Counted from the first letter of the stretch, positions 5,619 through 25,002 are shown. The stretch: DNA of 64,000 bases from Burkholderiales bacterium (GCA_035456405.1 DATIDG010000034.1:22151-86150), one strand, 5' to 3'. Translations and numbers: made by a program. The notes: generated by a model not told the origin, from the letters alone.

Positions 5619-6275
5619 CTACTTCTCCGCGGCCTTCTCGCCCTTCGCGGCGTCCTCGGACTTCCGGTCGGCGGGCTTTTCCGGCTCCTCGGGCTCCTTG
5701 TGCGCGATGCCCTGGTGGCAGTCGATGCACGTGATCCTGCCGCCGCTCTTGCGCGCTTTCTCGTGGCGGCTCTGCGCCATCGGCCGCTGCTCGGACAGCG
5801 CCATCCGGTCCCAGTCGTGGCAGTGACGGCAGTTGGCCGAGTCGTTCGCCCTCATCTCGTCCCAGACGTGGTTCGCCATTCGCCAGCGCTCTTTCTCGTA
5901 CTTCTCCTGCGTCGAGATGACGCCCCTGGCCTCGCCGATGATGTCCTTGATCCCGGCCTTTGCCTTGTAGACGAGCTTCGCCGGATAGCTGTGCGGGATG
6001 TGGCAGTCGGCGCACGTGGCCGACACGCCGGCCTTGTTCGCGTAGTGGGTGCTCTCCTTGTACTCGGGCAGCGTGAAGGCCTTCATCGAGTGGCAGGCTT
6101 CGCCGCAGAACTCGACCGTCCCGGTCCTCTTCACCATCACGTCGGTGACGATCACGCCGCCGGCGCCGATCACGATGCCGACGACGACCAGCGACAGCAC
6201 GGACCACTGCGCGGTCGGGGAGGTGAGAGCGCGCCAAGTGCGCTTGATGAACCCGGGTCTGGAGGCATCGGCCAT
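5619..6275 (-). CDS. NapC/NirT/NrfH-family membrane tetrahaem cytochrome c (quinol dehydrogenase type) with an atypical CX3CH first haem site
   Basis: N-terminal TM helix, then haem sites CGEACH(SM), CADCH, CRHCH and CIDCH. ATG at 6275 is preceded by AAGGAGA. The track start at 6299 is a GTG inside the predicted promoter. Confidence 0.85.
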   Translation of the reverse strand: MADASRPGFIKRTWRALTSPTAQWSVLSLVVVGIVIGAGGVIVTDVMVKRTGTVEFCGEACHSMKAFTLPEYKESTHYANKAGVSATCADCHIPHSYPAKLVYKAKAGIKDIIGEARGVISTQEKYEKERWRMANHVWDEMRANDSANCRHCHDWDRMALSEQRPMAQSRHEKARKSGGRITCIDCHQGIAHKEPEEPEKPADRKSEDAAKGEKAAEK

Positions 6276-6303
6276 TCTTGGTCTCCTTGTTTGAGGCACC
6301 GGG

Positions 6304-6412: not shown

Positions 6413-7618
6413 CTACTTCTTGTAGAAGTATTCCGGAGCGCTGGTCGCGCGCGGGGTCGCCTTACGCGCTTGGTTCGGGTTGAAGGTGTGCGTGGCGACG
6501 AACAGATTCTGGGCGGTGCTAGCCGTGCCGGGCATGATCTTGTCTACGTCGTACTTCGAGCGATGGCATTCCCTGCACGTCGCGCGCGATTCGATCAGCG
6601 CCTTGCCGGCCACCGCATGCGACGAGTGGCAATCCGAGCAGCTCAGCGGGTTCTCCTTGTCCCTGTAGTGTTTCGACTGGATGAACTCCTGATATTCCTG
6701 GTGGTGCTTGCGCGCGTCGTACAGGCCGCTTTTCTGCGACTGCTCGTCGAGCCAAAACGCGTTGTTGAGGTCCGTCTTCGGGTAGTTCTGGTTCACCGGC
6801 TGCGCGGGATTCACACCCGGGATCAGCATCTTGTCCGGATACCACTTGCGCCAGTCGTCCTGGCCCGCCTTGAACGTCTGGCCGACCACCGGATGCGGCT
6901 GGTCCTCCCGCGGGTTCCCCTGCGCGGTCTTGAAGTGCTCGTTCTCCTTGCGGACGTGGCAATAGCCGCAGACGAGCGAGGCTTGCTCCTTGCTGGCTTT
7001 CCCGGGGTTAAAGACGTCGGCGCCCCTGGCCGACTGAACATGCTTGGCGCCCGGGCCGTGGCAGGCCTCGCAGCCGGTGTTATGCTCGGACATCGCGACC
7101 TTCTGCGCGGCCGGGTTCTCCGGGTCATAGGAGAGCAGCCGATAGCCGGTCGCGTGGCAGGTCGCGCACTGCGTCTCCCAGTCGTTCTTCTGGCCGTAGT
7201 TCTCCCACTGCTTGTGCACCGTGTTCCACTGCTTGTCCATGAACTGGAGGTTGCCGGTCGCCGGATTCTTCACGAGATAGCGCTGCTTCCAGAACGAACC
7301 GACGACGAGCTGCACGTCCTCGAGCTTGTAGGGCTTGCCGTCTATGTTGCCTCTTGTCGGTCCGGCCGTGCCCTTTGCGTCCTTCGCCCAGTTGTCGCCG
7401 GCACCCTTGAGCAAGCCGTCTTTGAGCGTGCGGATCATCTTCGAGTGGTAGGTGTCCTTCCATGTGCGGTACTCGGCCTGGTGGCACTTCTGGCACGCCT
7501 CGGAGCCGACAAACCCGTCGGCGGTCGGTCCGCCGGGGCCTGTTACACAACCCGCAGTCACCGCGCCGAGCAGCGCGAGCAACGCAACGGCCAGCCAACC
7601 CAGCATCGTCCTTGTCAT
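6413..7618 (-). CDS. Periplasmic six-haem c-type cytochrome, probable lipoprotein
   Basis: Signal peptide with lipobox MTRTMLGWLAVALLALLGAVTAGC. Six CXXCH sites: CQKCH, CATCH, CEACH, CGYCH, CSDCH, CRECH. ATG at 7618. No CXXCK site. Confidence 0.8.
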   Translation of the reverse strand: MTRTMLGWLAVALLALLGAVTAGCVTGPGGPTADGFVGSEACQKCHQAEYRTWKDTYHSKMIRTLKDGLLKGAGDNWAKDAKGTAGPTRGNIDGKPYKLEDVQLVVGSFWKQRYLVKNPATGNLQFMDKQWNTVHKQWENYGQKNDWETQCATCHATGYRLLSYDPENPAAQKVAMSEHNTGCEACHGPGAKHVQSARGADVFNPGKASKEQASLVCGYCHVRKENEHFKTAQGNPREDQPHPVVGQTFKAGQDDWRKWYPDKMLIPGVNPAQPVNQNYPKTDLNNAFWLDEQSQKSGLYDARKHHQEYQEFIQSKHYRDKENPLSCSDCHSSHAVAGKALIESRATCRECHRSKYDVDKIMPGTASTAQNLFVATHTFNPNQARKATPRATSAPEYFYKK

Positions 7619-7786
7619 CGGTGATTCCCCTGTGAACGCGTGCGCGGCCAAGTTCACTCGCACGTCCGAAAGAAAGTACGCTGCAACCCGCCGTTCGGCC
7701 ATTGGCCGATCGACCGATATGCTACCTCTTCTGGCACGGATCCCGTTACACCGGCGACTTCCGGACCCCTGCGGGTACGGAAGGTG

Positions 7787-8383
7787 TCAGCGCTTGAGGC
7801 GCACCCAGAGGCCTTCGTCTTGCTCGAGCTCCTCGAGCCGCGTCTCGACCTCGTACAGCGTTGCGTCGATCTCGGGGAGGAGCACGTCCTGCAGCGCCCG
7901 CACCCGGCGCACCGTGCGCCGGTACTCCTGGTACAGGCGCTCGAGATTGCCGATCATCGCGGCCATCTCGACCAGCTTCGGCAGCAGCTTCGCGAACGCT
8001 ACCCGTGCGGCCTCGGCCTCCGGCGACGGGTTCGGCGCCGGCTCGGCCTTGTTCGCCACCCCTTCCAGCCGCGCCTCGAGCAGCGCCACGCCGAGCAGCG
8101 ACTTGCGGTGCGTGTGGACGTGCTGCGGCGAGGCGTCGGCCGGCGGATAGCACTGCACGCCCTGCAGGCCGTGGCGGCCGGCCGCGAGCTGAAGCGCGCG
8201 GAGCGCCCCTTTCTGCAGCTCCGCCAGCTCGGCACGCAGCTTCTCGAAGCGGCGCACCTCCTGCAGCATCGCGCCGGCGAGCAGCAGGCACTTCTCGTCT
8301 AGGAATGCGTAGCCCTCGTGCATCGTCCGGCGCTCGTCCTTGAGCGCGATGACGACGCTGCGGGTGGGGGTGATGTCGCTCAT
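7787..8383 (-). CDS. atpD: V/A-type ATPase subunit D (central stalk)
   Basis: 198-aa coiled-coil protein starting MSDITPTRS. C-terminal segment EYRRTVRRVRALQDVLLPEIDATLYEVETRLEELE is typical of subunit D. Last gene of the operon. Confidence 0.85.
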   Translation of the reverse strand: MSDITPTRSVVIALKDERRTMHEGYAFLDEKCLLLAGAMLQEVRRFEKLRAELAELQKGALRALQLAAGRHGLQGVQCYPPADASPQHVHTHRKSLLGVALLEARLEGVANKAEPAPNPSPEAEAARVAFAKLLPKLVEMAAMIGNLERLYQEYRRTVRRVRALQDVLLPEIDATLYEVETRLEELEQDEGLWVRLKR

Positions 8384-8408
8384 ACGGTGTGCATGCGGGT
8401 CGAGCTGC

Positions 8409-9791
8409 TCATGCCGCCTTGTCGAGGTAGCGCTCGATTTGCGCGTCGGAGAGGCGCGCGAGCTCCGACTTCGGCAATGCACGCAGGATCTTCCAGCCGG
8501 CGTCCATGCTTGCCTCCAGCGTGCGCGCTTCGGGATGGCGCACCAGGTCCTGCTCGAAGCGCGAGCCGAACGCGAGGTACTTGCGATCGGTCTCGGAGAG
8601 GCCTTCCTCGCCGACTACGCTGGCGAGCACGCGCGCCTGGATCGACCGCGCATACGCCGCGTAGAGCTGGCTCGACAGGGCAGGGTGGTCGGCGTGGGTG
8701 AACCCCTTGCCGGTGCCGTCCTTCATCAGCCGCGACAGGCTCGGCAGCACGTTCACCGGCGGGTACACGCCGGCGCGGTCGAGCTCGCGCGACAGCACGA
8801 TCTGCCCCTCGGTGATGTAGCCGGATAGGTCGGGAATCGGGTGCCCGATGTCGTCGGAGGGCATGGTCAGAATCGGAAACTGCGTTAGCGTGCCCTTCGC
8901 GCCGTGCAAGCAGCCCGCGCGCTCGTAGAGTGTCGCGAGGTCCGAGTACATGTAGCCCGGGTAGCCCTTCCGGCCCGGCACCTCGCCTTTCGCGCCCGCA
9001 ACCTCGCGCAGCGCCTCGCAGTAGTTCGTGAGATCGGTGAGGATGACGAGCACGTGCTTGCCTTCCTCGAACGCGAGGTACTCCGCGGCGGTGAGCGCGA
9101 AGCGTGGCGTGAGCAGGCGCTGCGTCGAGGAGTCGCTCGCGAGGTTGAGGAACAGCGCCGCGCGCTCGAGCGCACCCGACTGCTCCAGCGAGCGCCGGAA
9201 GTACTCGGCGCTGTCGTACGGTACGCCGATCGCCGCGAAGATGATTGCAAACCCGCCGGCGCCCGCCCCGCGCAGCCGCGCGTTGCAGGCCACCTCCACC
9301 GCCATCCGGTCGTGCGGCAGCCCCGCGCCCGAGAAGATCGGCAGCTTCTGGCCGCGCACCAGGCTGTTCATCAGGTCGATGGCGGTGATGCCGCTCTCGA
9401 TGAAGTCGCGCGGCGTGGCGCGCGCCACCGGGTTGATCGGCAGACCCTCGATGCGCAGCGTCTTTTTCACCGGGATCGGCGGCCCACCGTCGATCGCCTC
9501 CCCGATTCCGTTGAACACCCGCCCGAGCATGGCCGGCCCGACGCCGAAATAGATCGGCTCGCCGAGGAAGCGCACGGCGGTGCCCTGGAGCGCGAGGCCG
9601 GAGCTCGACTCGAGCAGCTCGATCGTTAAATGGGTCTCGTCGATGGCGGCGACGCGGCCCAGGCGGGCGCGCCCGTCGCCGCCGCGCACCTCGACCGCCT
9701 CGTTCAGCCCGACGTCGAGCGTGCGGCGCAGGAAGAGCAGCGGCCCTTCGAGCCGGGTCGCTGCGTCGCTCACTATGACTCTAGGATGCAC
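8409..9791 (-). CDS. atpB: V/A-type ATPase subunit B
   Basis: 460 aa with SGAGLPHD, TDLTNYCEALREV, PGRKGYPGYMYSDLATLYERAG and PILTMPSDDIGHPIPDL. Start is GTG at 9791, overlapping the atpA stop, or alternatively GTG at 9773. Confidence 0.95.
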   Translation of the reverse strand: MHPRVIVSDAATRLEGPLLFLRRTLDVGLNEAVEVRGGDGRARLGRVAAIDETHLTIELLESSSGLALQGTAVRFLGEPIYFGVGPAMLGRVFNGIGEAIDGGPPIPVKKTLRIEGLPINPVARATPRDFIESGITAIDLMNSLVRGQKLPIFSGAGLPHDRMAVEVACNARLRGAGAGGFAIIFAAIGVPYDSAEYFRRSLEQSGALERAALFLNLASDSSTQRLLTPRFALTAAEYLAFEEGKHVLVILTDLTNYCEALREVAGAKGEVPGRKGYPGYMYSDLATLYERAGCLHGAKGTLTQFPILTMPSDDIGHPIPDLSGYITEGQIVLSRELDRAGVYPPVNVLPSLSRLMKDGTGKGFTHADHPALSSQLYAAYARSIQARVLASVVGEEGLSETDRKYLAFGSRFEQDLVRHPEARTLEASMDAGWKILRALPKSELARLSDAQIERYLDKAA

Positions 9792-11580
9792 TTTCCTCTT
9801 CCTTCACTGGCGCGAGTGCCCGGAACTCCGCCTCCATGCGCGCCTCGAGCGCGGCGAACTTGTCGAGCTCCGTTTCCGCGACCTCCTCGCCCATGCGCTG
9901 TAGCGGGCGGAGGATCTTCATCGCGGCGATGCGGTCCGGGGCGATGCCCGCGTGCAGTGCCGCCTCCGCCTTGTCGACGAAATAGGCGAGCAGCCGCATC
10001 ATCGCGGCCTGGCGGCTCGGGCCCGCGTAGCGGTCGATCTCCGAGAATGCCGACTGCCGGAGGAACGCCTCGTTGACCAGCTCGGCGCAGAACAGGGTGA
10101 GCTGCTGGCGCGGCGGCAGAGCGTCCTTGCCGATGATCCGCGCCATGCGCTCGAGGTGCGCCTGCTCGTCGAGCAGCGTCAGGAAGCGGCGGCGCAGCTC
10201 CAGCCACTCGTTCGCGCCGCTCGCGGCGGGACTGCCGCCGGCCGGGAGCGTCGAGTAGGTTTGCTGCCACCACTCGGCCATGTGGAGCGCGTCCTCCGAG
10301 TACGACTGCAGCGGGTTGATCGCGGGGTAGAAGCGGGCCTGCGCGCGCTTCGCGTCGAGCGCCCAGAAGGAGCGCACGTAACGCTTGGTGTGGCTCGTCA
10401 CCGGCTCGGAGAAATCGCCGGAAGGGGGGCTCACCGAGCCGAGCAGCGTCACCGAGCCGGCGTCGCCGCCCAGCGTGCGCACTTTCGCCGCGCGCTCGTA
10501 GAAGTCCGCGATGCGGCTCGAGAGATAGGTCGGATAGCCGCCTTCGCCGGGGAGCTCGCCGAAGCGGCCCGACACCTCGCGCAGCGCCTCGGCCCAGCGG
10601 CTGGTCGAGTCGGCCATCAGCGCCACGTGCAGCCCCTGGTCGCGGAAGTACTCGGCGACGGTCACGCCCGTGTAGACGCTCGCCTCGCGCGCCGCGACCG
10701 GCATGTTCGAGGTGTTGGCGATGATGACCGTGCGCTCCATCAGCGGGCGGCCGCTGCGCGGGTCCTCCAGCTTCGGGAACTCGTCGAGCACGCCGGCCAT
10801 CTCGTTGCCGCGCTCGCCGCATCCGAGGTAGACGATCACGTCGGCGCTGCACGCTTTCGCGAGCGCCTCGAGCAGCACGGTCTTACCAGTGCCGAAGCCG
10901 CCCGGGATCGCACCCTTGCCCCCGAGCGCGATGGGGAAGAGCGAGTCCAGGATCCGCTGCCCGGTCATGAGCGGCTCGTCCGACGGCAGCCGCTCGCGCA
11001 CCGGGCGCGGCTCGCGCACCGCCCAGAAATGACTCATCGCGACGTCGCGCGTCTTCCCGTCGGCGCCGCGCAGCTTCAGGATCGGCGCATCGTCCGCGTG
11101 CTCGCCGGCGGCGACGATGCTGACGACTTCGCCGGAGACCCCCGGCGGAACGAGCACGCGCTGCGGCTTGCCCTTGCTCGCGCCGACCTCCCCGAAGGGG
11201 TGGCCGGGCTCGAGCCGATCGCCCGGCTTCACGCGCGGCGTGAAGGCGAACACCGTCGACCGCCCCGCGCTCATTCCCGGCTCGACGTAGCTCGTCGTGG
11301 CGCCCGCGAGCGGCCGCATCAGCCCGTCGAAGATGTCGCCGAGCATCGCCGGCCCGAGGCGGACGCCGAGCAGTTCGCCCGTGCCCGCGATCTCGACACC
11401 CGGCCGCAAGCCGGTGGTGTCCTCGTACACCTGCGCGACGATCTCTTCCTCGTTGAGGCGGATGACCTCGCCGAGCAGCGCCTGGGGCCCGACGCGGATC
11501 GCCTCGCGCAGCCTGAAGGGCCCCTCGGCGCGCGCGCGCAGCACCGGGCCGCTGATCCATTTGATCCGCGCCGTGCTCAT
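9781..11580 (-). CDS. atpA: V/A-type ATPase catalytic subunit A
   Basis: 599 aa starting [13 protein letters not shown]. Walker A GGFGTGKT, plus [25 protein letters not shown] and [13 protein letters not shown] at 11578-11580. The track ORF to 12267 is read-through. Confidence 0.95.
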
Positions 11581-11618
11581 TCGAAGTTGTCCCAAGAACC
11601 CCGAACCGCCGCGCGGGA

Positions 11619-11690
11619 GGGGATATACAAGGGGCTCGCCCCTTGTTTGTGCATGGGGGACATACAAGGGGAGTCTCCCCTTGTTCGTAC
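11619..11690 (-). repeat. Two tandem copies of a ~35-bp unit, each with an 8-bp inverted repeat (acaagggg-N4/5-ccccttgt)
   Basis: Stems at 11627-11634/11639-11646 and 11664-11671/11677-11684. Flanks are also repeated (ggggaYatacaagggg...ccccttgttYgt). Lies in the only long gap (139 nt) of the ATPase operon, between atpE and atpA. Confidence 0.6.
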
Positions 11691-11719
11691 GAAGGGTTTG
11701 TTGTGATCGACGCGCAAAC

Positions 11720-12355
11720 TCATCTTCGAGATGACTCCTCTTGGTCTCCTGCTCCCTGCTCGAGATGGTGCAGCAGCTGCCCCTCGATCGCCTTGCGATC
11801 GGCGAGCAAACCCTCGAGCGTCGCGTCGAGCGTGTTATTGCCGGCGCGCACGCGGAACCCCGCGGCGAGGGTCGCGTCTTCCGCAAACGCGAGATCCGGG
11901 CCGCCGTGCGCGGCGAGCCAGCCCGCCGTCGCCTGGCGCTCGTCCGCGGCCCAGCCGGGCGCGTGCGCGATCTCCCACTCGGTGCGCGGCAGCGCCGCGA
12001 GGGCGCGCCCGAGATGCGTCTCTGCCCAGCGCCTGCGGCCCGCCGCATCGCGCCAGCGCGCTGCGAGCGCCGCCGGCAGCAGGCGCCAGCCCTCGGCGAG
12101 CATCGCCGCCTCGCGGCCCTGGTGCGCGAGGCGCTGGCGCGTGCGCAGATGCGCCTCCGCCCCGGCCACCGCGGCGTCGTAGCGCTTCCGCTCGTCGACG
12201 ATCGCCTCGTGCACGCGGCTCCGCGCGAGACGGAAGGCCTGCGCGACCAGTGCCCGTGCCTCGGCACGGGCCGCCGCGACGATCTCGCGCGACTTCGAGT
12301 CGCGGTACTCGTCGACGAGGGCGAGCAGGGCGCGGGCGCGCTCTTCGGTGTTCAT
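11720..12355 (-). CDS. atpE: V/A-type ATPase subunit E (peripheral stalk)
   Basis: 211 aa. N-terminal Ala/Arg coiled coil, then a globular C-terminus (GFRVRAGNNTLDATLEGLL). ATGA overlap with the subunit F stop. Confidence 0.7.
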   Translation of the reverse strand: MNTEERARALLALVDEYRDSKSREIVAAARAEARALVAQAFRLARSRVHEAIVDERKRYDAAVAGAEAHLRTRQRLAHQGREAAMLAEGWRLLPAALAARWRDAAGRRRWAETHLGRALAALPRTEWEIAHAPGWAADERQATAGWLAAHGGPDLAFAEDATLAAGFRVRAGNNTLDATLEGLLADRKAIEGQLLHHLEQGAGDQEESSRR

Positions 12356-12651
12356 CCCTCGAGCCCCAGCTGCCGTCGCACCCGCGCCGCAGGGTCAACC
12401 GGCGAAGCCCGACCGTCGAGGTCCGGCACGATCAGCACGAGCGGCGCCTGTGCGGCGATCGCCTGCTCGAGCCGCGCGAGCGGGATCTTCAGCGCGGTGT
12501 CCAGCGCGACCAGCACGACGCGCGCCTCGCCGCGGGCGCGCTCGAACGCCGCCGCTTCCTCGCCGGGCGGCGGGACGTGCACGGCGACCCCGGCGAGCCG
12601 GTACCCGCTCGCCATGATCGCGTCGCCGACGAATGCGATCGGGGAGGTCAT
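12352..12651 (-). CDS. atpF: V/A-type ATPase subunit F
   Basis: 99 aa starting MTSPIAFVGDAIMASGYRLAGV, then VVLVALDTA, the pattern typical of V-type F subunits. Confidence 0.75.
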   Translation of the reverse strand: MTSPIAFVGDAIMASGYRLAGVAVHVPPPGEEAAAFERARGEARVVLVALDTALKIPLARLEQAIAAQAPLVLIVPDLDGRASPVDPAARVRRQLGLEG

Positions 12652-12690
12652 GCGTCCGCTCTACGGAGCCTCCGATTGATGTCGTTCCAG

Positions 12691-13041
12691 TCAGCCCAGC
12701 CGGTTGAGAATCAGGATCGAGATGATCACGCCGTAGATCGCGATCCCTTCGGCGAGGCCGACGAAGATCAGCAGGCGACCGAGCAACTCGGGCTTCTCGG
12801 CCAGCGCGCCGACCGCAGCGGCGCCGAGCTTGCCGACCGCGAGGCCCGCGCCGAGCGAGGAGAGGCCCGTCGCGAGCGCGGCGGCGAGCAGACCCCAGCC
12901 AGCCGCGTCGCCGGTGAGCGCCGCCGCGGCGGCGGGTGCCTGGGCCGCGGCCGGTCCGGCCCAGAAGAGGAGGGCGGTGGCGCCGAGGCTCAGCGCGGCG
13001 GCGACCAGGGTCAGCGCGAGTGCGAACTTGATTCTTGGCAT
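12691..13041 (-). CDS. atpK: V/A-type ATPase proteolipid (K/c) subunit, single hairpin with an N-terminal signal-like helix
   Basis: 116 aa. MPRIKFALALTLVAAALSLGATALLFWAGPAAAQA, then a two-helix hairpin (GLSSLGAGLAVGKLG...FVGLAEGIAIYGVIISILIL) with the carboxylate Glu in helix 2. Confidence 0.85.
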   Translation of the reverse strand: MPRIKFALALTLVAAALSLGATALLFWAGPAAAQAPAAAAALTGDAAGWGLLAAALATGLSSLGAGLAVGKLGAAAVGALAEKPELLGRLLIFVGLAEGIAIYGVIISILILNRLG

Positions 13042-13043
13042 CG

Positions 13044-14852
13044 TTATTTCTCCGTGAGAGCGACGGGGGGCGGCAGCAGCGGCCGGAACTCGCGGCCCTC
13101 CGCCTGGAAGAAGCGGGCGAAAAACTCGAACAGCACGAGGCGCGTCGTCTGGATCGAGACGACCAGCCCCTCCAGCGCCAGGATGACGACATTCCCGAGC
13201 GCCAGTACGACGAGAAAGCCGAACGTTCCGCCGGCCGCGTCGGCGAGGGCAACCACGGCCGAGGACAGTCCCGCATGCGCGAGCGCGAACGCGCCCACAC
13301 GCGCGAACGAGAGCGTGTTGATCAGGATCTGCATTGCCCGCTCGACCAGTTCCCCGAGCGCTTTCAACGCCCCGATCGCGTGCCCCTCGGCGCGTGCGTG
13401 GCCGACCGCGAAGACGACTGCGCCTGCGAGCGCAACGAACGCCGAGGCCGGGCTCAGGAACAGTCCGAGGAGCCCCAAGTAGACGAGCACGAACCCGCCC
13501 TCGGTCGCGAGCCACTCGCCGAACTCGCCGCGCCACCAGGCCTCGAGCGCGCTCAGCACGAACCCGATCGCCAGGAAGACCACTCCGCCCAGGAGCGGCA
13601 CACCGAGCACCACGAGCGGCTCCTCGAGCGGATTGATCCAGAGCGGATGGATCAGATGCTCGACGCTGAAGACGCTGCCGAACGCGAGCCCGAAGACCGC
13701 TGCCGACAGCCCGGCGGGGATGAGGAGGCCGAGCACCGGCATGCGCTTGCGCAGCCAGAAGCCGGCGGCCGCGAGCACCAGCCCCTGGCCGACGTCGCCG
13801 AACATGTAGCCGAAGAGGAGCGGCACCGCGACCGCGAGCAGCTTGCTCGGGTCCGCGCCGTACTCACCGGGCATGCCGAAGAGCCGGCTGAAGATCTCGA
13901 ACGGCCGCGCCCACCAGGGATTGCGGAGCAGGAGTGGCGGGCGCACGCCCCGCGGCGGCTTCGGGAAGCTCGCGAGCGCGCGCGCGTCCGCGCGTTCGAT
14001 CGCCGCCGTCAGGCTCGGTGCATCGCTCGTCCAGCCGGTGATGCGCGAGAACACCTCGCCGCCTTCGATCGCGCCGACATTGTCGAAGCACCACGCCGCC
14101 CGCGCGACGTCGCCGAGGGCAGTGGGAACGTCGTGGCGCTCATCCAGGGCGGCGAGCTCGGCGCGCGCGGTCGCAGCGTCCCCGCTTCGAACCGCGCGGC
14201 GGTCCGCGATCAGCGCGAGATTCTCCTCGGCGCTTGGCCGCAGCCACTCCGGTACCTGCGCGCGGCGACCGTTCGCCGCCGCGACCTCCTGGCCGAGCGG
14301 CTCGATCGTCTCGGGAGCGCCGACCGCCAACAGGAATGTCTCCTCCTCGAAGTCGATCGGATGGAGCAGCACGCTCGAGGGCAGCGACAGCCGCGCCCCC
14401 TTCGGGTAGACGAACACGCACGCGACCACGCGGCCGCCCGGCTCGCCGATCGCCGAGAAATCGATCGGTGCGCCGCGCAGGCGCTCCATGACCCGCGCCA
14501 CGGTGTCGAGCTGCGCGATCTCGGACTCGGCGTCCTGCAGTCCCGCGATCACCCGGTCTGCCTCGGCCGACCAGGCATCGATGGTCGCGATCGCGGCCGC
14601 GAGCGCGTCGGCGGGCGCGACCCGCGTGGTCGCGCGCAGGCGCGCGGCCGGCCAGTACGCGCGATAGCGCCGCGACAGCACGCCGTACTCCCTGAGGAGA
14701 CGGTTGACCTGCGCGGCATCGTCCTGCTGGAGCGCGCCGCGCCGCCATTCGATCTCCACCGCGCCCGTCATGGCGAGCGCCTCGAGCGCGACGAACGCAT
14801 CGTCGCGCGCGACGAGGATCTCGAACCAGCGCGCCGCTTCAGGCCGGATCAC
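13044..14852 (-). CDS. atpI: V/A-type ATPase subunit I (a-type stator/proton path)
   Basis: 602 aa. GTG start overlaps the stop of the upstream gene. Soluble N-terminal half, then a multi-TM C-terminal half ending in SFARVGAFALAHAGL, the conserved Arg-containing helix. Confidence 0.85.
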   Translation of the reverse strand: MIRPEAARWFEILVARDDAFVALEALAMTGAVEIEWRRGALQQDDAAQVNRLLREYGVLSRRYRAYWPAARLRATTRVAPADALAAAIATIDAWSAEADRVIAGLQDAESEIAQLDTVARVMERLRGAPIDFSAIGEPGGRVVACVFVYPKGARLSLPSSVLLHPIDFEEETFLLAVGAPETIEPLGQEVAAANGRRAQVPEWLRPSAEENLALIADRRAVRSGDAATARAELAALDERHDVPTALGDVARAAWCFDNVGAIEGGEVFSRITGWTSDAPSLTAAIERADARALASFPKPPRGVRPPLLLRNPWWARPFEIFSRLFGMPGEYGADPSKLLAVAVPLLFGYMFGDVGQGLVLAAAGFWLRKRMPVLGLLIPAGLSAAVFGLAFGSVFSVEHLIHPLWINPLEEPLVVLGVPLLGGVVFLAIGFVLSALEAWWRGEFGEWLATEGGFVLVYLGLLGLFLSPASAFVALAGAVVFAVGHARAEGHAIGALKALGELVERAMQILINTLSFARVGAFALAHAGLSSAVVALADAAGGTFGFLVVLALGNVVILALEGLVVSIQTTRLVLFEFFARFFQAEGREFRPLLPPPVALTEK

Positions 14853-15649
14853 GGCAGCACCCCGAACGCCGCGCGCGTGACAAGCTGCGCGCGCAGCTTC
14901 TCGATGTCGAGCGCCACCAGGGCGATATAAGCGAAGGCTGCGACCGGCGTGAACGCATGGCGCCTGAAGCGCGCCGCGATCTGCGCCTCGAGGCCGCGGC
15001 GCATCGTCCAGGCGTCCTCCGAGCCGACATCGACGAACCGTGGCAGGTGCCGGAGCACGAGGCCCGCGAGCTCTTCGAGCGCTGCGGCGTCGTCGCCGCT
15101 GCGGTCGGGCCAACGATCGCGCCACTCCGCGAGCCAGACCTCGAGCGCGAGCGCATCGGCCGTGGCGGCGCGCAGGCCGTTCCCCTCGCCGAGTTGGGCC
15201 TCGATCGCGAGCACGACCGGCGCGAGCGGTCCGTTCCGCAGTGCCGCACGGCGTGCGTCGGCGTCCGCGTCCGCGTACTGCTGCAGCACCGGGTCACGAC
15301 GCATCCAGGGGGCCGGCGGCTCGCCGCGCGCGAGCCGGGTGACCGCCGGCAAGTCCACGAGATGCCCCGTCCAGTCCAGGGCGCGCTGCCACTCGCCGGA
15401 GACCCATGCGGCGACTTCGGCGATGGCCCCGCGGAGCTCGGTCCTCAGGCGCAGCTCGATCTCGTCCGCGTCGGCGTCGACGGGAATCGCGGCGACCCAG
15501 CGACGGAGCGGCGAGGCGCGCAGCGTCTCGAGCGCCGCAACCAGGCTGCGCGCGCTGCGGAGCTGGTTCCACAGCGACTCATCGCCACGCTGGCCGTAAC
15601 GGGACTGGAGGCGTGCCTGCGCGTATTCGAGCGGAAGTCCGCCGATCAT
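14849..15649 (-). CDS. atpC: Probable V/A-type ATPase subunit C (eukaryotic d / AC39-like)
   Basis: 266-aa all-helical protein in the position expected for subunit C. N-terminus YAQARLQSRYGQR...L...S is AC39-like. It is shorter and more divergent than typical members. Confidence 0.55.
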   Translation of the reverse strand: MIGGLPLEYAQARLQSRYGQRGDESLWNQLRSARSLVAALETLRASPLRRWVAAIPVDADADEIELRLRTELRGAIAEVAAWVSGEWQRALDWTGHLVDLPAVTRLARGEPPAPWMRRDPVLQQYADADADARRAALRNGPLAPVVLAIEAQLGEGNGLRAATADALALEVWLAEWRDRWPDRSGDDAAALEELAGLVLRHLPRFVDVGSEDAWTMRRGLEAQIAARFRRHAFTPVAAFAYIALVALDIEKLRAQLVTRAAFGVLP

Positions 15650-15749
15650 TCCCGCCGCCTCCGGTCGTCCATGGCCGACGGCGCACGGCCAGCCGAGGTC
15701 GCCGTTCTCGCATCCCTGGCAGAAAGCGCCGGGGCCCCCGCTCGGTAGC

Positions 15750-16106
15750 TCACTCGGCTGCTTCCTCCCCGATCAGCTCGTCGGCAAGCCGGTCGACCGC
15801 GCTCGCGAGGTTCGTTCGCGCAGCTTCGTCTTGTTCCGCCTGGGGGTCGGGCCCGACCGCCTCGGCGTCGATTGCGGCGAGCCGTGCGGCGCGCCGCTTA
15901 GCGGTGCTGGCGCGGATTGCGGATATGCGCGCGGCCGCGGTCTCCGCGATGCGCTTGTCGCGCGCGCGGGCGTCGGCGCGGATCCCGTCTGCGGTTTGCT
16001 GCGATGCCGCAACCTCGGCTCGCGCGCGGCGCTCGGCGTCGAGCACGCGCGCCATCGCGGCCTCGACTTCGCTGTCGTTGCGGGCTCCCTCCCTGGTCTG
16101 CGCCAT
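15750..16106 (-). CDS. Small Ala/Arg/Glu-rich coiled-coil protein, probable V/A-ATPase peripheral-stalk (G/H-like) subunit
   Basis: 118 aa from the ATG at 16106 (MAQTREGARNDSEVEAAMARVLDAERRARAEV...). First gene of the operon. Assignment rests on position and composition only. Confidence 0.45.
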   Translation of the reverse strand: MAQTREGARNDSEVEAAMARVLDAERRARAEVAASQQTADGIRADARARDKRIAETAAARISAIRASTAKRRAARLAAIDAEAVGPDPQAEQDEAARTNLASAVDRLADELIGEEAAE

Positions 16107-16184: not shown

Positions 16185-16198
16185 TTGACACCGGTCAA
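16185..16198 (-). promoter_or_regulatory. FNR/CRP-family (Anr/Dnr-type) box TTGAC-ACCG-GTCAA, upstream of the V/A-ATPase operon
   Basis: Perfect 5+5 inverted repeat. On the minus strand a TCTAAT/AATAAT -10-like element (16155-16163) sits about 30 nt downstream of the box centre, which fits class II (-41.5) geometry. Confidence 0.45.
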
Positions 16199-16353
16199 AT
16201 CGACCGCTCGCGGGCCGCGGCCCGCGGGTTGTCAACATTCGCGGCACGAAACCGTTAGTCCGGTTGCGCCGGCGGAGTGTCGCACGGCTCCGGCCGATTC
16301 ACTAAGATCGCCTTGCTTCCAACTCATTGAACCGCGCGCGGGAGAACCGCACG

Positions 16354-16650
16354 ATGCGCATGCTGGCCACCGCAATCGCTGCTACCGCGTTGGCTCTTGG
16401 CAGCCTGGCACACGCCCAGGTCGACGCCAAGAAAGGCGAGGCCGCGGCCAAGGAGGCGGGCTGCATGGCCTGCCATGCGATTGACAGCAAGAAGGTCGGG
16501 CCGTCTCTCAAGGAGACCGGCAAAAAGTACGCCGGCGCGGCCGAGAAGGTGATCGCCGCCATGAAGGCGAGCAAGGATCACGCCGACGCGGTCAAAGGCA
16601 CGAAGGACGCTGACCTCAAGCTGATCGCGTCCTGGATCGCGTCGATGTAA
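16354..16650 (+). CDS. Periplasmic monohaem class I cytochrome c, MtoD-like
   Basis: Signal peptide MRMLATAIAATALALGSLAHA. Single CMACH site. GPSLKE..KKY and a KDHAD His where c551-type proteins carry the Met loop. C-terminal LIASWI. Confidence 0.8.
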   Translation: MRMLATAIAATALALGSLAHAQVDAKKGEAAAKEAGCMACHAIDSKKVGPSLKETGKKYAGAAEKVIAAMKASKDHADAVKGTKDADLKLIASWIASM

Positions 16651-17074
16651 CGACCCGAGTTACACCGGTCGATTCGAACTGCCTTTGGGCCGGGCGCGTC
16701 GAGTGACCTGGGCTCCAATTCCAATCGCTTCGCGGATTGAGTTGCGTCCGCGCTACGAATGGCCGGTCAGTGTATTGACCGCGCGACAAGATCTGCGCTA
16801 CAAAGTGGCACGCAATAAGAACCGGATGCGGTACGAGAAGCGCACGAAGCCGGAGTGGAAGGTCGTCTGACGCGGCAGCTTCCCTCGGAGCGGGAACCGG
16901 CATTGGGGAGGACCGAGTGATGCAGTTGGTTACATGGACCCAGCGAGGTTACCTCGTGTCGATCGGGCGCCAGTCCGTCCTCGCCGCATCCGGCGGCCGC
17001 CACCAACGCCTGTCCGCGCCCCTGCGCTTCCTGCTGCGCTCACCCACCTCGCACTAACCACCAGGAGTCGGTAG

Positions 17075-17410
17075 ATGAAGCTCAAAGTCGTAGTCCCAGC
17101 CGCGCTGGTCGCGCTTGGGATGACCGGCGGCGCGTACGCCCAAGACGTCGACGCCGCTGCGGCGGAGGCCCTGATGAAGAAGAGCGGCTGCTTCAAGTGC
17201 CACTCGGTCAGTCAGAAGAAGGATGCCCCGCCGTACAAGGAGATCGCGGGCAAGTACAAGGCCAAGCCGGACGGCGAGAAGGCGCTGATGACCCACCTTA
17301 CGACGAATCCGAAGGTCAAGGTGGACGGCAAGGAAGAGGAGCACGACTCGCTCAAGACGAAGAACGAGGCGGACGTGCGCAACGTGGTGAAGTGGATTCT
17401 GACGCGGTGA
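17075..17410 (+). CDS. Periplasmic monohaem cytochrome c, MtoD-like (paralogue 1)
   Basis: Signal peptide ending AYA-QD. Single CFKCH site, then KDAPPYKEIAGKYK, KEEEHD and VKWILTR. Confidence 0.85.
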   Translation: MKLKVVVPAALVALGMTGGAYAQDVDAAAAEALMKKSGCFKCHSVSQKKDAPPYKEIAGKYKAKPDGEKALMTHLTTNPKVKVDGKEEEHDSLKTKNEADVRNVVKWILTR

Positions 17411-17420
17411 AGGCAGAGAG

Positions 17421-17765
17421 ATGAACACGATTCGCTTGATGCTGGTATCGGGGCTCGCGGTCGGGACCTGGATGGGCCTGGCGCCGGTCGCGATGGGGCA
17501 GGCCGACGACGCCGCAGCGGAGGCCCTGGCGAGAAAGAGCGGGTGCCTCAAGTGTCATTCCGTGACGCAGAAGAAGGACGCTCCCTCCTACAAAGAGATC
17601 GCGGCCAAATACAAAGGTCAGGCGGACGCCGAGAAGAAGCTCGTCGCTTTCGTCTCCACGGGCTCCAAGATCAAGATCGACGGTAAGGAAGAGGAGCACG
17701 ATGTCCTAAAGACGAAAAACGAGGCCGAGGCCCGCAACGTGGCCCGATGGATCCTGACACGCTGA
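17421..17765 (+). CDS. Periplasmic monohaem cytochrome c, MtoD-like (paralogue 2, tandem duplicate)
   Basis: About two-thirds identical by eye to 17075-17410: CLKCH, KDAPSYKEIAAKYK, KEEEHD, ARWILTR. Starts 10 nt after the previous gene. Confidence 0.85.
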   Translation: MNTIRLMLVSGLAVGTWMGLAPVAMGQADDAAAEALARKSGCLKCHSVTQKKDAPSYKEIAAKYKGQADAEKKLVAFVSTGSKIKIDGKEEEHDVLKTKNEAEARNVARWILTR

Positions 17766-17792
17766 CCGGCTACGGCCCTAGGGGGAGGGAGG

Positions 17793-18401
17793 GTGTTCAA
17801 GAAGACGTGGGAGTGGCTGGGCGGTCAGTGCCGCACCTGTTCCCGCATCCGGCTCGCGGTCGGGATCGTCCTGGCGACGGTGCTGTTCGGGGCCGTGTTC
17901 ATGGTCGCTGGCGCGGGCGCGCTCGCGTGGACCAACACCGAGAACTTCTGCATCGGCTGCCACGAGATGCGCGACAACGTGTACGCGGAGTTCAAGGGCA
18001 CGATCCACGACAAGAACCGGACTGGCGTACGCGCGATCTGCTCCGACTGCCACGTGCCGCGGGAGCCGGGGCCGCTGGTCTTGAGAAAGATGCGGGCGAC
18101 CTTCGAGCTCTGGGGTCACTTCACCGGAGTGGTCGACAGCAAGGAGAAGTTCGAGCAGCATCGCTACGAGCTGGCCAGGCGGGTCTGGGTGCGGATGAAG
18201 GAGACCGACTCGCTCGAGTGCCGCAATTGCCACAAGTACGACTCCATGGACGCCGACGTGCAGTCGGACAAGGCGAAAGCCCGCCACGCGAAGGGCAAGG
18301 CCGAGGGCCTGACGTGCATCGATTGCCATTTCGGCATCGCGCACAAGGAGCCGGAAGGCGGACCTGGCCCGAGGGAACTCAAGGTCGGGAGCAGCAAGTG
18401 A
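17793..18401 (+). CDS. cymA: NapC/NirT-family membrane tetrahaem cytochrome, CymA-like quinol/quinone oxidoreductase
   Basis: GTG start and N-terminal TM helix. Haem sites CIGCH(EM), CSDCH, CRNCH and CIDCH. Paralogue of 5619-6275. Confidence 0.9.
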   Translation: MFKKTWEWLGGQCRTCSRIRLAVGIVLATVLFGAVFMVAGAGALAWTNTENFCIGCHEMRDNVYAEFKGTIHDKNRTGVRAICSDCHVPREPGPLVLRKMRATFELWGHFTGVVDSKEKFEQHRYELARRVWVRMKETDSLECRNCHKYDSMDADVQSDKAKARHAKGKAEGLTCIDCHFGIAHKEPEGGPGPRELKVGSSK

Positions 18402-18483
18402 GCTTTGCGACGGGGACCGTTACAGCGGCGCGGCGCCGGAGTTCCGGGTGTTGCGCCCACGCGACATTTTTGTTGCTCGGCTA

Positions 18484-18512
18484 TTGACGCCAGGAACCAC
18501 GTTGGGCGTAAT
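18484..18512 (+). promoter_or_regulatory. Candidate sigma-70 promoter for the decahaem/porin gene pair
   Basis: TTGACG, a 17-nt spacer, then CGTAAT, within the 306-nt gap between the cymA-like and mtoA-like genes. Confidence 0.3.
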
Positions 18513-18707
18513 GCCCGAGTAGAAGATTAAGTGGTCGCAGCGCGAATGCAATCGCGTGCAAGCGACCCTCGCAGCGATCACTAGGCTGCGCGAACGGCGC
18601 GCGGTGGTACCGCGCAACTGCGCCGAAACGGAGGGAAAGGACTCCGGCCCGGCGCCGCAGCGACCGTTCGGGGCGATGGTGCTGCAGTTCCGGCATAGGG
18701 GGAGTCC

Positions 18708-19700
18708 ATGCGTTTTAGCCATTCGATCGCCACCGCGCTCGCGGGCGGCGCGGCCTTGTTGTGCGCTCAACTTGCCTTCGCCCAGCAGCCCGCGGATGCG
18801 AAACCGCCGCGAGCGGACCTGGTCCTCACCGGCGACGCGAAGTGCACGCGTTGCCACAACGAGGAGGACTCGCCCCAGCTCCTCGCCATCGGGCAGACCC
18901 GCCACGGCACGAAAGCCGATGGCCGCACGCCCACCTGCACGAACTGCCACGGCGAGAGCGAGAACCACATCCAGAAGCCGTCGGGCGCGAAGGAGCGGCC
19001 CCAGCCGGATCGCACGTTCGGCAAGTCGTCGACCACGCCGATGGCCGAGCGCAGCGCGGCCTGCCTCACCTGCCACCAGGGCGGCAATCGCATCGCCTTC
19101 CAGGCAAGCGTGCACGCGAACCGCGACGTCGCCTGCAGCTCCTGCCACAAGATCCACAGCGCGCGCGACGCCGTGCGGGACACCGGACCCCAGGCGAGCC
19201 GCGATTCGGCGCGGGACGTGCGGACGCAGACCGACGTCTGCTTCACCTGCCACAAGGAGCAGCGCGCGCAGGTCAACCGGCCCGTGCACCACCCGATCAT
19301 CGAAGGCAAGATGACCTGCTCGTCGTGCCACAACGTGCACGGCGACAACCCGGCCCAGCTCGTGAGGGACAGCGTCAACGAGACCTGCTTCACGTGCCAC
19401 ATGGAGAAGCGCGGGCCGTTCCTGCACAACCACGCGCCGGTGCAGGAAAACTGCGCCATCTGCCACCAGCCGCACGGCACGGTCATCGCCAACCTCCTGA
19501 AGGCGCGGCCGCCGTTCCTCTGCCAGGAGTGCCACAGCCACACGAGCCATCCGAGCCAGGCGGCGGGCCTGCCAACGGGCCGGACGACCTCGACTTCGCT
19601 CCTCGGCACCGTCGCGCGGGGCTGCCCGAACTGCCACATCAACATCCACGGCAGCAACAGCTCGCAGAACAGCGCGACCGCCGGACGCTTCCGTCGCTGA
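18708..19700 (+). CDS. mtoA: Periplasmic decahaem cytochrome c of the MtrA/PioA/MtoA family
   Basis: Signal peptide ending AFA-QQ. Exactly ten CXXCH sites in 330 aa: CTRCH, CTNCH, CLTCH, CSSCH, CFTCH, CSSCH, CFTCH, CAICH, CQECH, CPNCH. Confidence 0.9.
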   Translation: MRFSHSIATALAGGAALLCAQLAFAQQPADAKPPRADLVLTGDAKCTRCHNEEDSPQLLAIGQTRHGTKADGRTPTCTNCHGESENHIQKPSGAKERPQPDRTFGKSSTTPMAERSAACLTCHQGGNRIAFQASVHANRDVACSSCHKIHSARDAVRDTGPQASRDSARDVRTQTDVCFTCHKEQRAQVNRPVHHPIIEGKMTCSSCHNVHGDNPAQLVRDSVNETCFTCHMEKRGPFLHNHAPVQENCAICHQPHGTVIANLLKARPPFLCQECHSHTSHPSQAAGLPTGRTTSTSLLGTVARGCPNCHINIHGSNSSQNSATAGRFRR

Positions 19701-19722
19701 CCGGGACTGGGGGACAGCCATC

Positions 19723-23415: not shown

Positions 23416-23668
23416 GGGTCTGCGGCTTCGGGCGCACCTCGCCCTCGGGGGCGAGGGCCGCGAACGCATATGGGCGCGCGGCCCTGGAGCGTGCGCCCGT
23501 GGCGGTGCTGTGCGCTCGCTGAGCCCGACTCTTGCCGGTACACAATCCGGCTCGGGCGACTACGCCTCCGGGCGCGGGCCCTTGTGGGCCGCCTCCGGGT
23601 CGCTTACCCTTCGCGCCTCCGTCGCCAACAAGAATCTGCGGCGCCGCGCCGGCCGCTGCCCCCTTCTC

Positions 23669-24310
23669 ATGCTCGAAGCCCTCGATCTCGAATGCACCCG
23701 CGGCGAGCGCGTGCTGTTCAGCGGGCTCGCCGTACGCATCGAGCCGGGCACGCTGCTGCGTGTGGCGGGACCAAACGGCACCGGGAAGACGAGCCTGCTG
23801 CGCCTGCTGTGCGGGCTGCTGCAGCCGACGCACGGCGAGATTCGCTGGCGGGGCGAGGGGGTCCGCTCCCTCCGCGAGGAGTACTGGCGCGAGCTCGCGT
23901 ACGTCGGCCACCTGAACGGGGTCAAGGACGACCTGACCGCAGCCGAGAATCTGCGGGCGTCGGCCGGGATCGCCGGACTCGAGGCCGACGAAGGCGCGCT
24001 GCGCGGAGCGCTCGATGCGGTCGGGCTCGCGGGCTTCGAGGACTCGCTCACGCGTTCTCTGTCGCAGGGGCAAAAGCGCCGCATCGCGCTCGCGCGGCTG
24101 TTCCTGAGCGGCGGCGTGCCGCTCTGGATCCTGGACGAGCCCTTCACCGCGCTCGACGCGCGCGGCGTCGCGGCGCTGGGGACGCTGCTCGCGCGCCATC
24201 TCGCGGGCGGCAACATCGTAGTCTTCACCACCCACCAGGAAGTGCCGATCGATGCGGAACGCACCGAGACGATCGAGCTCGGCCGCGGGATGGGGCAGCC
24301 GTCGTGCTGA
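23669..24310 (+). CDS. ccmA: Haem exporter ATP-binding protein CcmA
   Basis: Walker A GPNGTGKTS, signature LSQGQKRR, Walker B LWILDEP. Confidence 0.9.
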   Translation: MLEALDLECTRGERVLFSGLAVRIEPGTLLRVAGPNGTGKTSLLRLLCGLLQPTHGEIRWRGEGVRSLREEYWRELAYVGHLNGVKDDLTAAENLRASAGIAGLEADEGALRGALDAVGLAGFEDSLTRSLSQGQKRRIALARLFLSGGVPLWILDEPFTALDARGVAALGTLLARHLAGGNIVVFTTHQEVPIDAERTETIELGRGMGQPSC

Positions 24311-24963
24311 AGACCCTTGCCGCGGTCGTCCGCCGCGACCTGCTGCTCGCCATCCGGCAGCGCGCGGACGTGGCGAACACGCTGCTCTTCTTCGTCGTGG
24401 TGGTGACGATGGTGCCGCTCGGCGTGGGCGCGGAGCCGAACCTGCTGCGCTCGATCGCGCCGGGCGTGGTGTGGGTCGCCGCGCTGCTCGCCGCGATCCT
24501 GTCGCTCAACCGCCTCTTCGCCGCGGACTTCGCAGACGGCACGCTGGAGCAGATGCTGATCTCCGCGGAGCCCTTGCCGCTGATCGTGCTCGGCAAGACC
24601 GCGGCGCACTGGCTCGTCACCGGCGTGCCGGTCACCGTCATCGCGGTCGTGCTCGGGATCATGTTCGACCTCGGCGTCGAGGCCACGGCGATCCTGATGG
24701 CCTCGCTCGCGCTCGGCACGCCGGTCCTTTCGCTGATCGGCGCGGTAGGCGCGGCCCTGACGCTCGGGCTGAGGGGGGGCGGCGTGCTAGTATCGCTGCT
24801 CGTTTTGCCCCTGTACGTGCCCGTGCTGATCCTCGGCGCGGGGGCGGTCGCGGCGGGGCTCGGCGCGGCTCCGTATCTGCTGCTCCTCGGGGCGCTCGCG
24901 CTGTTCGCCGTGGTTCTCACGCCTTGGGCCGTCTCGGCGGCATTGCGCATCTCGGTAGAGTGA
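24304..24963 (+). CDS. ccmB: Haem exporter membrane protein CcmB
   Basis: GTG overlaps the end of ccmA. Six-TM protein with FADGTLEQM and LVLPLYVPVLI motifs. Confidence 0.9.
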   Translation: MLKTLAAVVRRDLLLAIRQRADVANTLLFFVVVVTMVPLGVGAEPNLLRSIAPGVVWVAALLAAILSLNRLFAADFADGTLEQMLISAEPLPLIVLGKTAAHWLVTGVPVTVIAVVLGIMFDLGVEATAILMASLALGTPVLSLIGAVGAALTLGLRGGGVLVSLLVLPLYVPVLILGAGAVAAGLGAAPYLLLLGALALFAVVLTPWAVSAALRISVE

Positions 24964-25002
24964 ACTGACTTGCAGACGAAGGTGCTCGTGGTCGGCGGCG
25001 GC

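Follow-up and report, generated by a model that had tools for sequence, protein, structure and literature searches.

A complete V/A-type ATPase operon beside porin-cytochrome genes in a Burkholderiales genome

Introduction

Why should a betaproteobacterium carry the genes of a second rotary ATPase, and what does their position next to cytochrome genes mean? This question is raised by a V/A-type ATPase operon on the minus strand (positions 7787-16106) of a 64,000-nucleotide stretch of DNA, hereafter the window, from a Burkholderiales bacterium (GCA_035456405.1, DATIDG010000034.1:22151-86150). The window has a G+C content of about 69% and lies on contig C34 of a 4.85-Mb genome that is 98% complete; the nearest named relatives of this genome are Burkholderiales metagenome-assembled genomes (MAGs), some of them labelled Casimicrobiaceae. 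An earlier note, made from the sequence of the window alone, had described the operon as complete, had placed it between two cytochrome modules and had proposed an auxiliary enzyme co-regulated with electron transfer. The observation of a complete second rotary ATPase operon in a betaproteobacterium is real, and the enzyme itself is an ordinary further bacterial V/A-ATPase. Its conserved association with porin-cytochrome conduits, with uptake hydrogenase and with an FNR-type site is a real and apparently undescribed pattern. A search of the full-text literature, with subscription journals outside the coverage, yielded no paper that connects V-type ATPases with Mtr/Mto clusters or with hydrogenase in Burkholderiales. 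Loci, genomes and contigs are cited below by our own handles (L, G and C, respectively).

Results

Composition of the operon

All nine genes listed in the earlier note were found, collinear and in the order G/H-like stalk-C/d-I-K-F-E-A-B-D, and family, profile or structure-model evidence identifies seven of them and makes the assignment of E and of the first gene probable (Table 1). The A/B pair with the A-specific insert places the enzyme in the V/A lineage. The A subunit matches PF00006, PF16886 (the A-specific insert), PF02874 and PF22919, and its P-loop (GFGTGKT) and GERGNEM motif are intact. Against F-type models (atpA and atpD) and alternate-F1F0 models, A and B of the window scored far under the cut-offs. 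In the central stalk, D and F were recognised by Pfam and the rotor socket C/d by AlphaFold (AF2) and Foldseek. The membrane sector has a subunit I with the essential arginine and a proteolipid with the essential carboxylate. NCBIfam subunit I models also match the I subunit, under their cut-offs, and its motif SFARVGAFALAH, with the stator residue Arg518, is invariant among 11 sequences of the proteobacterial clade described below (alignment A1). Judged from its sequence, the locus probably encodes a complete, proton-coupled and functional V/A-type rotary ATPase.

Three of the genes required more than a direct family match. The C/d gene showed a sub-threshold match to PF01992 (AC39; E = 4e-4), and by sequence alone neither phmmer nor a clade profile gave anything meaningful against the PDB; structure prediction was therefore needed. 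The AF2 model of C/d (pLDDT 89) matched V-ATPase subunit d and Thermus subunit C with a Foldseek probability of 1.0 and TM scores of 0.55-0.65. The top 17 PDB matches were all one or the other of these two subunits, and nothing else was confident. For gene 6 (E), no direct family match was detected in Pfam or NCBIfam. Its clade profile (A4) matched V-type subunit E at E = 7e-4 to 6e-3, including those of Pyrococcus (E = 7e-4) and Thermus (E = 4e-3), and also the C-terminal part of F-type delta. Gene 1 had no Pfam or NCBIfam match either. The matches of its clade profile to subunits H and G were all weak (E = 0.013-0.3), for instance E = 0.013 for MJ0223, a fragment of an archaeal subunit H, and E = 0.02 for subunit G of the V-type. 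Its position, size and coiled-coil character fit a peripheral-stalk subunit of this kind, and a homologous open reading frame lies upstream of C in 83 of 85 clade loci.

The genes are less tightly joined than the earlier note had held when it wrote that most junctions overlap. Just three of the eight junctions do so (C/I and F/E by 4 nt each, A/B by 11 nt), and the other five are separated by 2, 25, 39, 100 and 139 nt. The longest gap (139 nt, 11581-11719) is that between E and A.

Auxiliary status and ion coupling

An F-type operon is encoded elsewhere in the same genome, on contig C105, with atpD (793 bits), atpA and an a-subunit gene that is cut solely by the contig end. Therefore, the V/A enzyme is auxiliary, as the earlier note had supposed, and the possibility that it is simply the housekeeping enzyme was rejected.

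Residues 22-114 of the window K subunit are collinear with residues 7-98 of the 99-aa precursor of Thermus subunit K (5gar_O); the solved mature Thermus K chains have 73-74 aa. The window K is a Thermus-type single-hairpin proteolipid with an N-terminal extension that may be cleaved. The motif at the presumed carrier Glu98 is LAEGIAIYG, and Val69 occupies the facing position in helix 1. In an alignment of 119 K sequences, comprising clade members and some outgroups, the carboxylate is conserved in 118, the residue that follows it is Gly in 105 and the helix-1 position is Val in 104. The ligand positions were mapped from the Na+ sites of I. tartaricus and E. hirae. At these positions the polar Na+ ligands are absent from the window K, which has neither a full Na+ site nor the duplicated four-helix form. 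Since the polar ligands of Na+-binding rings are absent, we infer that the K ring is H+-coupled, which is where the ion-site analysis proposed by the earlier note leads.

A large proteobacterial clade

Searches of species-representative genomes with A and with a subunit I alignment found at least about 590-600 relatives. The number of protein clusters that match subunit I at E <= 1e-60 is at least 1359; the best 120 of these are all metagenomic and are named "V/A-type H+-transporting ATPase subunit I" or "hypothetical". A tree of 139 A subunits groups the proteobacterial sequences into a single clade with 100% support and a long stem (length 0.44); the sequences from archaea, Bacillota, Spirochaetota, Chloroflexota and Deinococcota fall outside it. 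The members are mostly Burkholderiales, together with Chromatiaceae, Woeseiaceae, Steroidobacteraceae, Thiotrichaceae and one Magnetococcales MAG, and the gene order is identical across them. The description of such operons as sporadic and scattered therefore understates a large, coherent and monophyletic clade of Beta- and Gammaproteobacteria with a fixed gene order. The A phylogeny that the earlier note had called for to trace the donor places this clade; it names no donor among the 139 sequences, because the clade stands on its own long stem and the nearest outside sequences are at most 50% identical to the window A. The operon is patchily distributed, being found in 7 of 61 close relatives and, where the order was sampled evenly, in about 5% of the genomes.

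Several individual records deserve mention. L016 is labelled 'uncultured Enterobacteriaceae', yet it belongs to the genus of the window, with an A subunit 91% identical, and L019 is labelled 'Myxococcota', yet its place in the tree is among the Burkholderiales; both have probably been mislabelled or mis-binned. Two genomes of the same family encode a different A/V-type A subunit, 46% identical to that of the window (G017:C92:1602-3347 and G035:C11:26013-27761), and both encode MtrB/PioB. In L100 (G002:C7:110990-130115, on a contig shared with L108), which is of the same genus, A, I, D, E and MtoA/MtrB are split into numerous frame-shifted pieces, through errors of long-read assembly or through decay of the island as a whole.

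Linkage to porin-cytochrome conduits

The earlier note had placed a six-haem cytochrome and a NapC/NirT gene downstream of the operon and a divergent Mto-type cluster upstream, and Pfam, NCBIfam and CXXCH counts agree with it. Genes in the flanks were called with a GC3-based heuristic and then checked by tblastn, HMM and Pfam searches. The MtrB/PioB porin (PF11854, 418 bits; TIGR03508, 251 bits against a cut-off of 192) adjoins an MtoA-like decahaem cytochrome with ten CXXCH motifs, the combination that marks an Mtr/Mto/Pio conduit. It is the only MtrB/PioB porin in the 4.85-Mb genome.

This arrangement is conserved in the genus and well beyond it, as the earlier note had asked to be checked. 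Within the genus, the six-haem gene follows D, and the set of cytochrome c, decahaem and porin lies divergently upstream. The genus belongs to an 11-row subclade of the I+A+B tree (100% support). In 8 of the 11 rows, an array reading ccm <- MtrB/PioB <- MtoA/MtrA-like decahaem, in some cases preceded by one or two MtrC/OmcA-like decahaem genes, is divergent from the V/A operon, and the layout often continues into the six-haem and NapC genes after D. One locus, L112, reproduces the window layout gene for gene, with six-haem and NapC proteins that are 57-58% identical. Whole-genome searches showed that MtrB/PioB is single-copy and adjoins the V/A operon in 10 species (G000, G001, G005 and G061-G067), and that MtrB is missing altogether from the two genomes of the subclade in which the adjacency is not seen. 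Beyond the subclade, MtoAB converges on the operon from 1.5-6 kb downstream of D, as one pair or two, in six genomes (five betaproteobacterial MAGs and one gammaproteobacterial). On the I+A+B tree, the adjacency state has changed at least 5 times, at three or more separate places. Two further suspected adjacencies (G084/L184 and G096/L185) were dropped, the genes being on other contigs.

MtrB/PioB was found in 52 of the 67 clade-bearing genomes. If a 4.2-Mb genome holds about two porin genes, about 0.7 of the 52 porin-positive genomes would by chance have one within 10 kb of the operon, and at least 17 do. This binomial estimate takes no account of shared ancestry and is indicative only. The survey of co-occurrence that the earlier note had recommended revealed enrichment at the genome level too: in an even 200-genome sample of the order, MtrB occurs in 6 of 10 operon-positive genomes and in 18 of 190 others (odds ratio 14, p = 2.5e-4). 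The cytochrome linkage is thus real and not due to chance.

Uptake hydrogenase and other recurrent neighbours

When flanking genes were clustered over 92 loci, the commonest neighbour across the clade was an uptake [NiFe]-hydrogenase, whose small and large subunits and cytochrome b are encoded divergently upstream in at least 13 loci. HypE or HypX is nearby in about ten further loci. Recurrent neighbours thus include HupS/L/C, HypE/X, FeoAB (5 loci), a cNMP-domain (Crp/Fnr-like) regulator (5 loci) and ccm genes. Because the commonest neighbour is an uptake [NiFe]-hydrogenase, the shared theme appears to be low-oxygen energy metabolism in general. The link to electron transfer proposed in the earlier note is hence borne out by the conduit adjacency, but it is not specific to extracellular electron transfer.

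In several loci an FNR-type box lies within the intergenic region shared by the hydrogenase and the V/A operon. The hydrogenase of the window genome itself is elsewhere, on contig C106. FeoA/FeoB stand between the V/A operon and cytochrome genes in L103 (17176-19300), L104 (17177-19271) and L018 (15280-17360). An SRPBCC/Coq10-like gene (polyketide-cyclase fold) directly follows D on the same strand in 10 loci, the median distance being 32 nt. This gene, which is absent from the window, may belong to the operon as its tenth in part of the clade. L145 and L128 combine these neighbours, with HupCLS divergent from the V/A operon, then SRPBCC, the regulator and FeoB, and MtoAB converging on them.

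A putative FNR-type box

The intergenic region between the operon and the Mto-type cluster contains a perfect palindrome, which reads TTGAC-CGGT-GTCAA on the coding strand of the operon. A -10-like element, TAATAAT (16156-16162, minus strand), lies about 30 nt from the centre of the palindrome, and the first ATG lies 85 nt from that centre. In a class II FNR-activated promoter, a TTGAT-N4-ATCAA-like palindrome is centred about 41.5 nt upstream of the transcription start, and the spacing of this putative site would fit the class II geometry. At the equivalent place, a TTGA-N6-TCAA box occurs in 36 of 88 clade loci, compared with 20 of 485 (4%) other intergenic regions of the same loci. The clade boxes sit just upstream of the first gene, 410-680 nt before the start of C, and many of the loci that bear them are without cytochrome neighbours. 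The co-regulation with the cytochrome machinery suggested in the earlier note is made plausible by this conserved palindrome in the shared intergenic region, which would point to co-regulation of the operon with the divergent conduit.

Genes flanking the operon in the window

The six-haem lipoprotein cytochrome lies 84 nt downstream of D on the same strand and is a conserved neighbour; its orthologues directly after D are 86-90% identical within the genus and 58% identical in L112 and L104. Among solved structures, it matches 6i5b best (E = 2.5e-15, residues 55-265), an 'uncharacterized protein' according to its deposition and probably the Thermincola surface cytochrome OcwA, and it matches cytochrome c554 and NrfA more weakly. 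No intrinsic terminators were found on the coding strand from D through the six-haem gene to NapC, a scan that is weak evidence either way.

The downstream NapC/NirT gene has orthologues in the same position in L100 (81% identity) and L112 (57%). It has three CXXCH motifs, whereas its paralogue in the conduit (17793-18401) has four; the L100 and L112 orthologues likewise have three. In two other loci of the genus (L097:820-2169 and L096:771-2120), the NapC gene after the six-haem gene is replaced by a convergent 450-aa six-haem protein with a NapC/NirT-like N-terminus, together with a monohaem cytochrome c. The ccm genes that follow the conduit in the window also follow the porin in L097, L112, L114 and L126.

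Table 1 Features of the V/A-type ATPase locus and of related loci (window positions unless a locus is given)
Feature	Positions	Strand	Basis
Gene 1, probable G/H-type peripheral-stalk subunit, 118-aa coiled coil	15750..16106	-	weak profile match, position
Gene 2, compact C/d rotor-socket subunit, 266 aa	14849..15649	-	structure model; PF01992 weak
Gene 3, I (a) stator subunit, 602 aa	13044..14852	-	PF01496, 42 bits (cut-off 30.7)
Gene 4, K proteolipid, 116 aa, one two-helix hairpin and an N-terminal leader-like hydrophobic helix	12691..13041	-	PF00137, 65 bits
Gene 5, F subunit	12352..12651	-	PF01990, 31 bits (cut-off 23.5)
Gene 6, probable E peripheral-stalk subunit, 211 aa	11720..12355	-	clade profile against structures
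Gene 7, catalytic A subunit, 599 aa	9781..11580	-	NF003220, 697 bits (cut-off 470)
Gene 8, non-catalytic B subunit, 460 aa	8409..9791	-	NF003235, 637 bits (cut-off 349)
Gene 9, D central-stalk subunit, 198 aa	7787..8383	-	PF01813, 88 bits
Putative FNR/Anr-type palindrome, TTGAC-N4-GTCAA, divergent intergenic region	16185..16198	.	read directly
Six-haem lipoprotein cytochrome	6413..7702	-	six CXXCH; Pfam c554 and MtrC-like domains
NapC/NirT-family quinol dehydrogenase	5619..6299	-	PF03264, 195 bits; NCBIfam NapC/NirT/TorC
Divergent Mto-type conduit: three monohaem cytochromes, CymA-like NapC/NirT, MtoA-like decahaem, MtrB/PioB porin	16327..21903	+	PF11854, TIGR03508
ccmA, ccmC, ccmE, ccmF, cytochrome c maturation genes, after the conduit	23510..28363	+	NCBIfam equivalogs above cut-offs
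Uptake [NiFe]-hydrogenase divergent from the operon, examples	L148:7649-8812, L025:2551-4350, L119:19-729		
SRPBCC gene, example	L106:9134-9649		

Discussion

We consider it slightly better than an even bet that the operon encodes an auxiliary H+ V/A-ATPase that is induced by oxygen limitation and supplements the F-type ATP synthase. This explanation is favoured because the neighbours and the box share a low-oxygen theme, which fits the data on the Riftia symbiont, the one parallel that the literature search yielded. In that symbiont, 'Candidatus Endoriftia persephone', V-type ATPases are co-expressed with [NiFe]-hydrogenases, the reductive tricarboxylic acid cycle and denitrification, and the F-type enzyme is co-expressed with the Calvin-Benson-Bassham cycle, bc1 and the cbb3 oxidase (PMC11636981). 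It is likewise a proteobacterium with F- and V-type enzymes, and its hydrogenase and anaerobic context is mirrored by the neighbours of the window clade and by the FNR-type box. However, the evidence there is transcriptional and here it is genomic context alone, and no porin-cytochrome link was reported there (PMC11636981).

By homology to the solved Thermus enzyme, the predicted architecture comprises an A3B3 head, a central rotor of D, F and C/d, a ring of single-hairpin K subunits each carrying Glu98, an I stator with Arg518 and peripheral stalks of the E/G type. An FNR/Anr-type oxygen sensor would bind the class II site in the intergenic region common to the operon and the Mto cluster, and the enzyme would be made when oxygen is scarce, together with a cytochrome route leading from quinol to the periplasm and on to the outer membrane. 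In related genomes, the uptake hydrogenase would be the partner in place of the conduit. The enzyme would then interconvert ATP and proton-motive force (pmf) in a low-yield mode. FNR binding, induction, ion specificity and a benefit to electron transfer are matters that we only infer from sequence and gene context.

As for the direction in which such an enzyme would work, that it is mainly an ATP synthase suited to low pmf seems to us to have a little under an even chance. The Thermus-like single-hairpin ring and the hydrogenase neighbours favour this. A less probable but serious alternative is that it is mainly an ATP-driven proton pump under anoxia, fed by ATP from substrate-level reactions or storage polymers. 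Hydrolysis would then uphold the membrane potential and the cytoplasmic pH while electrons leave through the conduit and the NapC/CymA-type dehydrogenases, whose quinol oxidation is non-electrogenic and adds little pmf. It is this non-electrogenic character of the conduits' quinol oxidation that speaks for a pump, together with the position of the operon between two NapC/NirT-family quinol dehydrogenases, the FNR-type box, and the MtrC/OmcA-type outward conduits and FeoAB that adjoin the operon in relatives. Shewanella, too, reportedly runs its F-ATPase backwards in anaerobic Mtr-dependent respiration. In addition, proton pumping is the presumed function of the V-type-like ATPases that acid-tolerant Thaumarchaeota acquired by operon transfer (PMC6863869). 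However, the window K has one carboxylate per single hairpin, as in the Thermus enzyme, which is a working synthase, and no sequence feature blocks synthesis. The commonest neighbour, an uptake hydrogenase with cytochrome b, builds pmf itself and would call for a synthase rather than a pump. The probability that is left falls to an enzyme that is co-inherited or co-regulated with these neighbours without any special coupling.

Several points weigh against the explanation that we favour. The linkage is frequent and not obligatory, since about 45 of the loci with adequate flanks show no cytochrome or hydrogenase genes in the vicinity, and since in G018 and G019, of the same family, the porin lies at a distance of 32 kb or on a different contig. 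Of the 88 loci, 52 lack the FNR-type box, which is also absent from most gammaproteobacterial branches. The adjacent cases within one subclade share ancestry, so that genome counts, which are phylogenetically non-independent, overstate the independent events, and the MAGs carry submitters' labels, some of which are plainly wrong. The flanking genes were called with a home-made GC3 heuristic, and the ion specificity is based on motif logic alone. The co-localisation could also have come from the co-transfer of an 'anaerobic island' and not from functional coupling.

We regard this last explanation as somewhat less probable again than the pump. On this view, history accounts for the neighbourhood: its genes were collected in a 'low-oxygen island', transferable or under FNR control, and were co-inherited without direct dependence between ATPase and cytochromes. 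The heterogeneity of the neighbours (Mto, MtrCAB, Hup/Hyp, FeoAB, ccm and a chromate transporter) is consistent with it, as are the concentration of most adjacency cases in two subclades of the ATPase tree and the many clade members without such neighbours. The ATPase tree also departs in places from the submitters' taxon labels, hinting at transfer. On the other hand, the adjacency is kept down to about 51-55% identity of subunit I, with a single-copy porin beside the operon in the 10 species named above. It recurs in the other orientation and in other branches, including a gammaproteobacterium, and even where the genes lie apart their co-occurrence across genomes is enriched.

A Na+-translocating V-ATPase for sodium extrusion, like Ntp of Enterococcus hirae, was rejected on the K motif and is highly improbable: some source annotations of relatives read 'H+/Na+-transporting' and K matches the E. 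hirae K subunit (E = 6.5e-12), but the window K is a single hairpin and not the duplicated four-helix form, it has the Gly and Val described above where polar Na+ ligands would stand, and no Na+-related genes are among the neighbours of the operon.

The auxiliary proton-translocating enzyme that we favour can be compared with several known systems. With the V/A-type H+ ATP synthase of Thermus thermophilus (5gar, 6qum, 6ly9) it shares the subunits A, B, D, F, C/d, I and K, probably also E and G, and K proteins that are collinear, each with one Glu in a single hairpin. The C/d model superposes on Thermus chain M, and the E profile matches Thermus E. Unlike in Thermus, C/d is about 55 residues shorter (266 versus 321-322 aa), and the enzyme coexists with an F-type synthase. 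The gene order also differs, being G/H-C-I-K-F-E-A-B-D in the window and G-I-L-E-C-F-A-B-D in Thermus. The Na+ V-ATPase of E. hirae (ntp; K ring 2bl2) similarly stands beside an F-type enzyme in a bacterium and has homologous A, B, D, I and K. However, K is duplicated there into a four-helix protein that carries a full Na+ site, whereas that of the window is a single hairpin without polar ligands, and gene order and regulation differ.

It is also known that V-type-like ATPase operons have moved horizontally among acid- and pressure-adapted Thaumarchaeota (PMC6863869). As in the window clade, a whole A/V-type operon serves there as an accessory module linked to habitat, and its phylogeny tracks lifestyle and not organism; those operons are, however, archaeal, tied to low pH or high pressure, and mostly replace the other enzyme (PMC6863869). 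Closer in taxonomy, the N-type ATPase operon of Burkholderia pseudomallei and others is a second rotary operon beside the F-type one in Betaproteobacteria, of unclear cellular role (PMC5376962). The N-type enzyme is an F-type derivative, whereas A and B of the window pass the V-type cut-offs and score far under those for F-type and alternate-F1F0 enzymes.

A further-reaching and rather doubtful proposal is that the Beta- and Gammaproteobacteria of the clade switch rotary enzymes with oxygen, using the F-type enzyme aerobically and an FNR-controlled V/A enzyme as the dedicated synthase, or keeper of pmf, in low-yield anaerobic and lithotrophic modes, namely extracellular electron transfer through Mtr/Mto conduits and H2 oxidation. 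If so, the V/A-ATPase would be a required and co-evolving part of these pathways and not a stray acquisition, and properties such as the size of its ring and its H+/ATP ratio would be adapted to a low pmf. Should the linkage turn out to be only a product of history, the locus would be no more than an ordinary operon for an accessory V/A-ATPase. The pattern provides a functional lead for a large and unstudied proteobacterial V/A-ATPase clade, the members of which have been annotated by homology or as 'hypothetical'. How energy is conserved when electrons cross outer-membrane cytochromes is an open question, as the quinol dehydrogenases of these routes contribute little pmf. An ATPase that stands, in one species after another, beside the only conduit of the genome offers a testable candidate for the step of energy coupling that is missing there.

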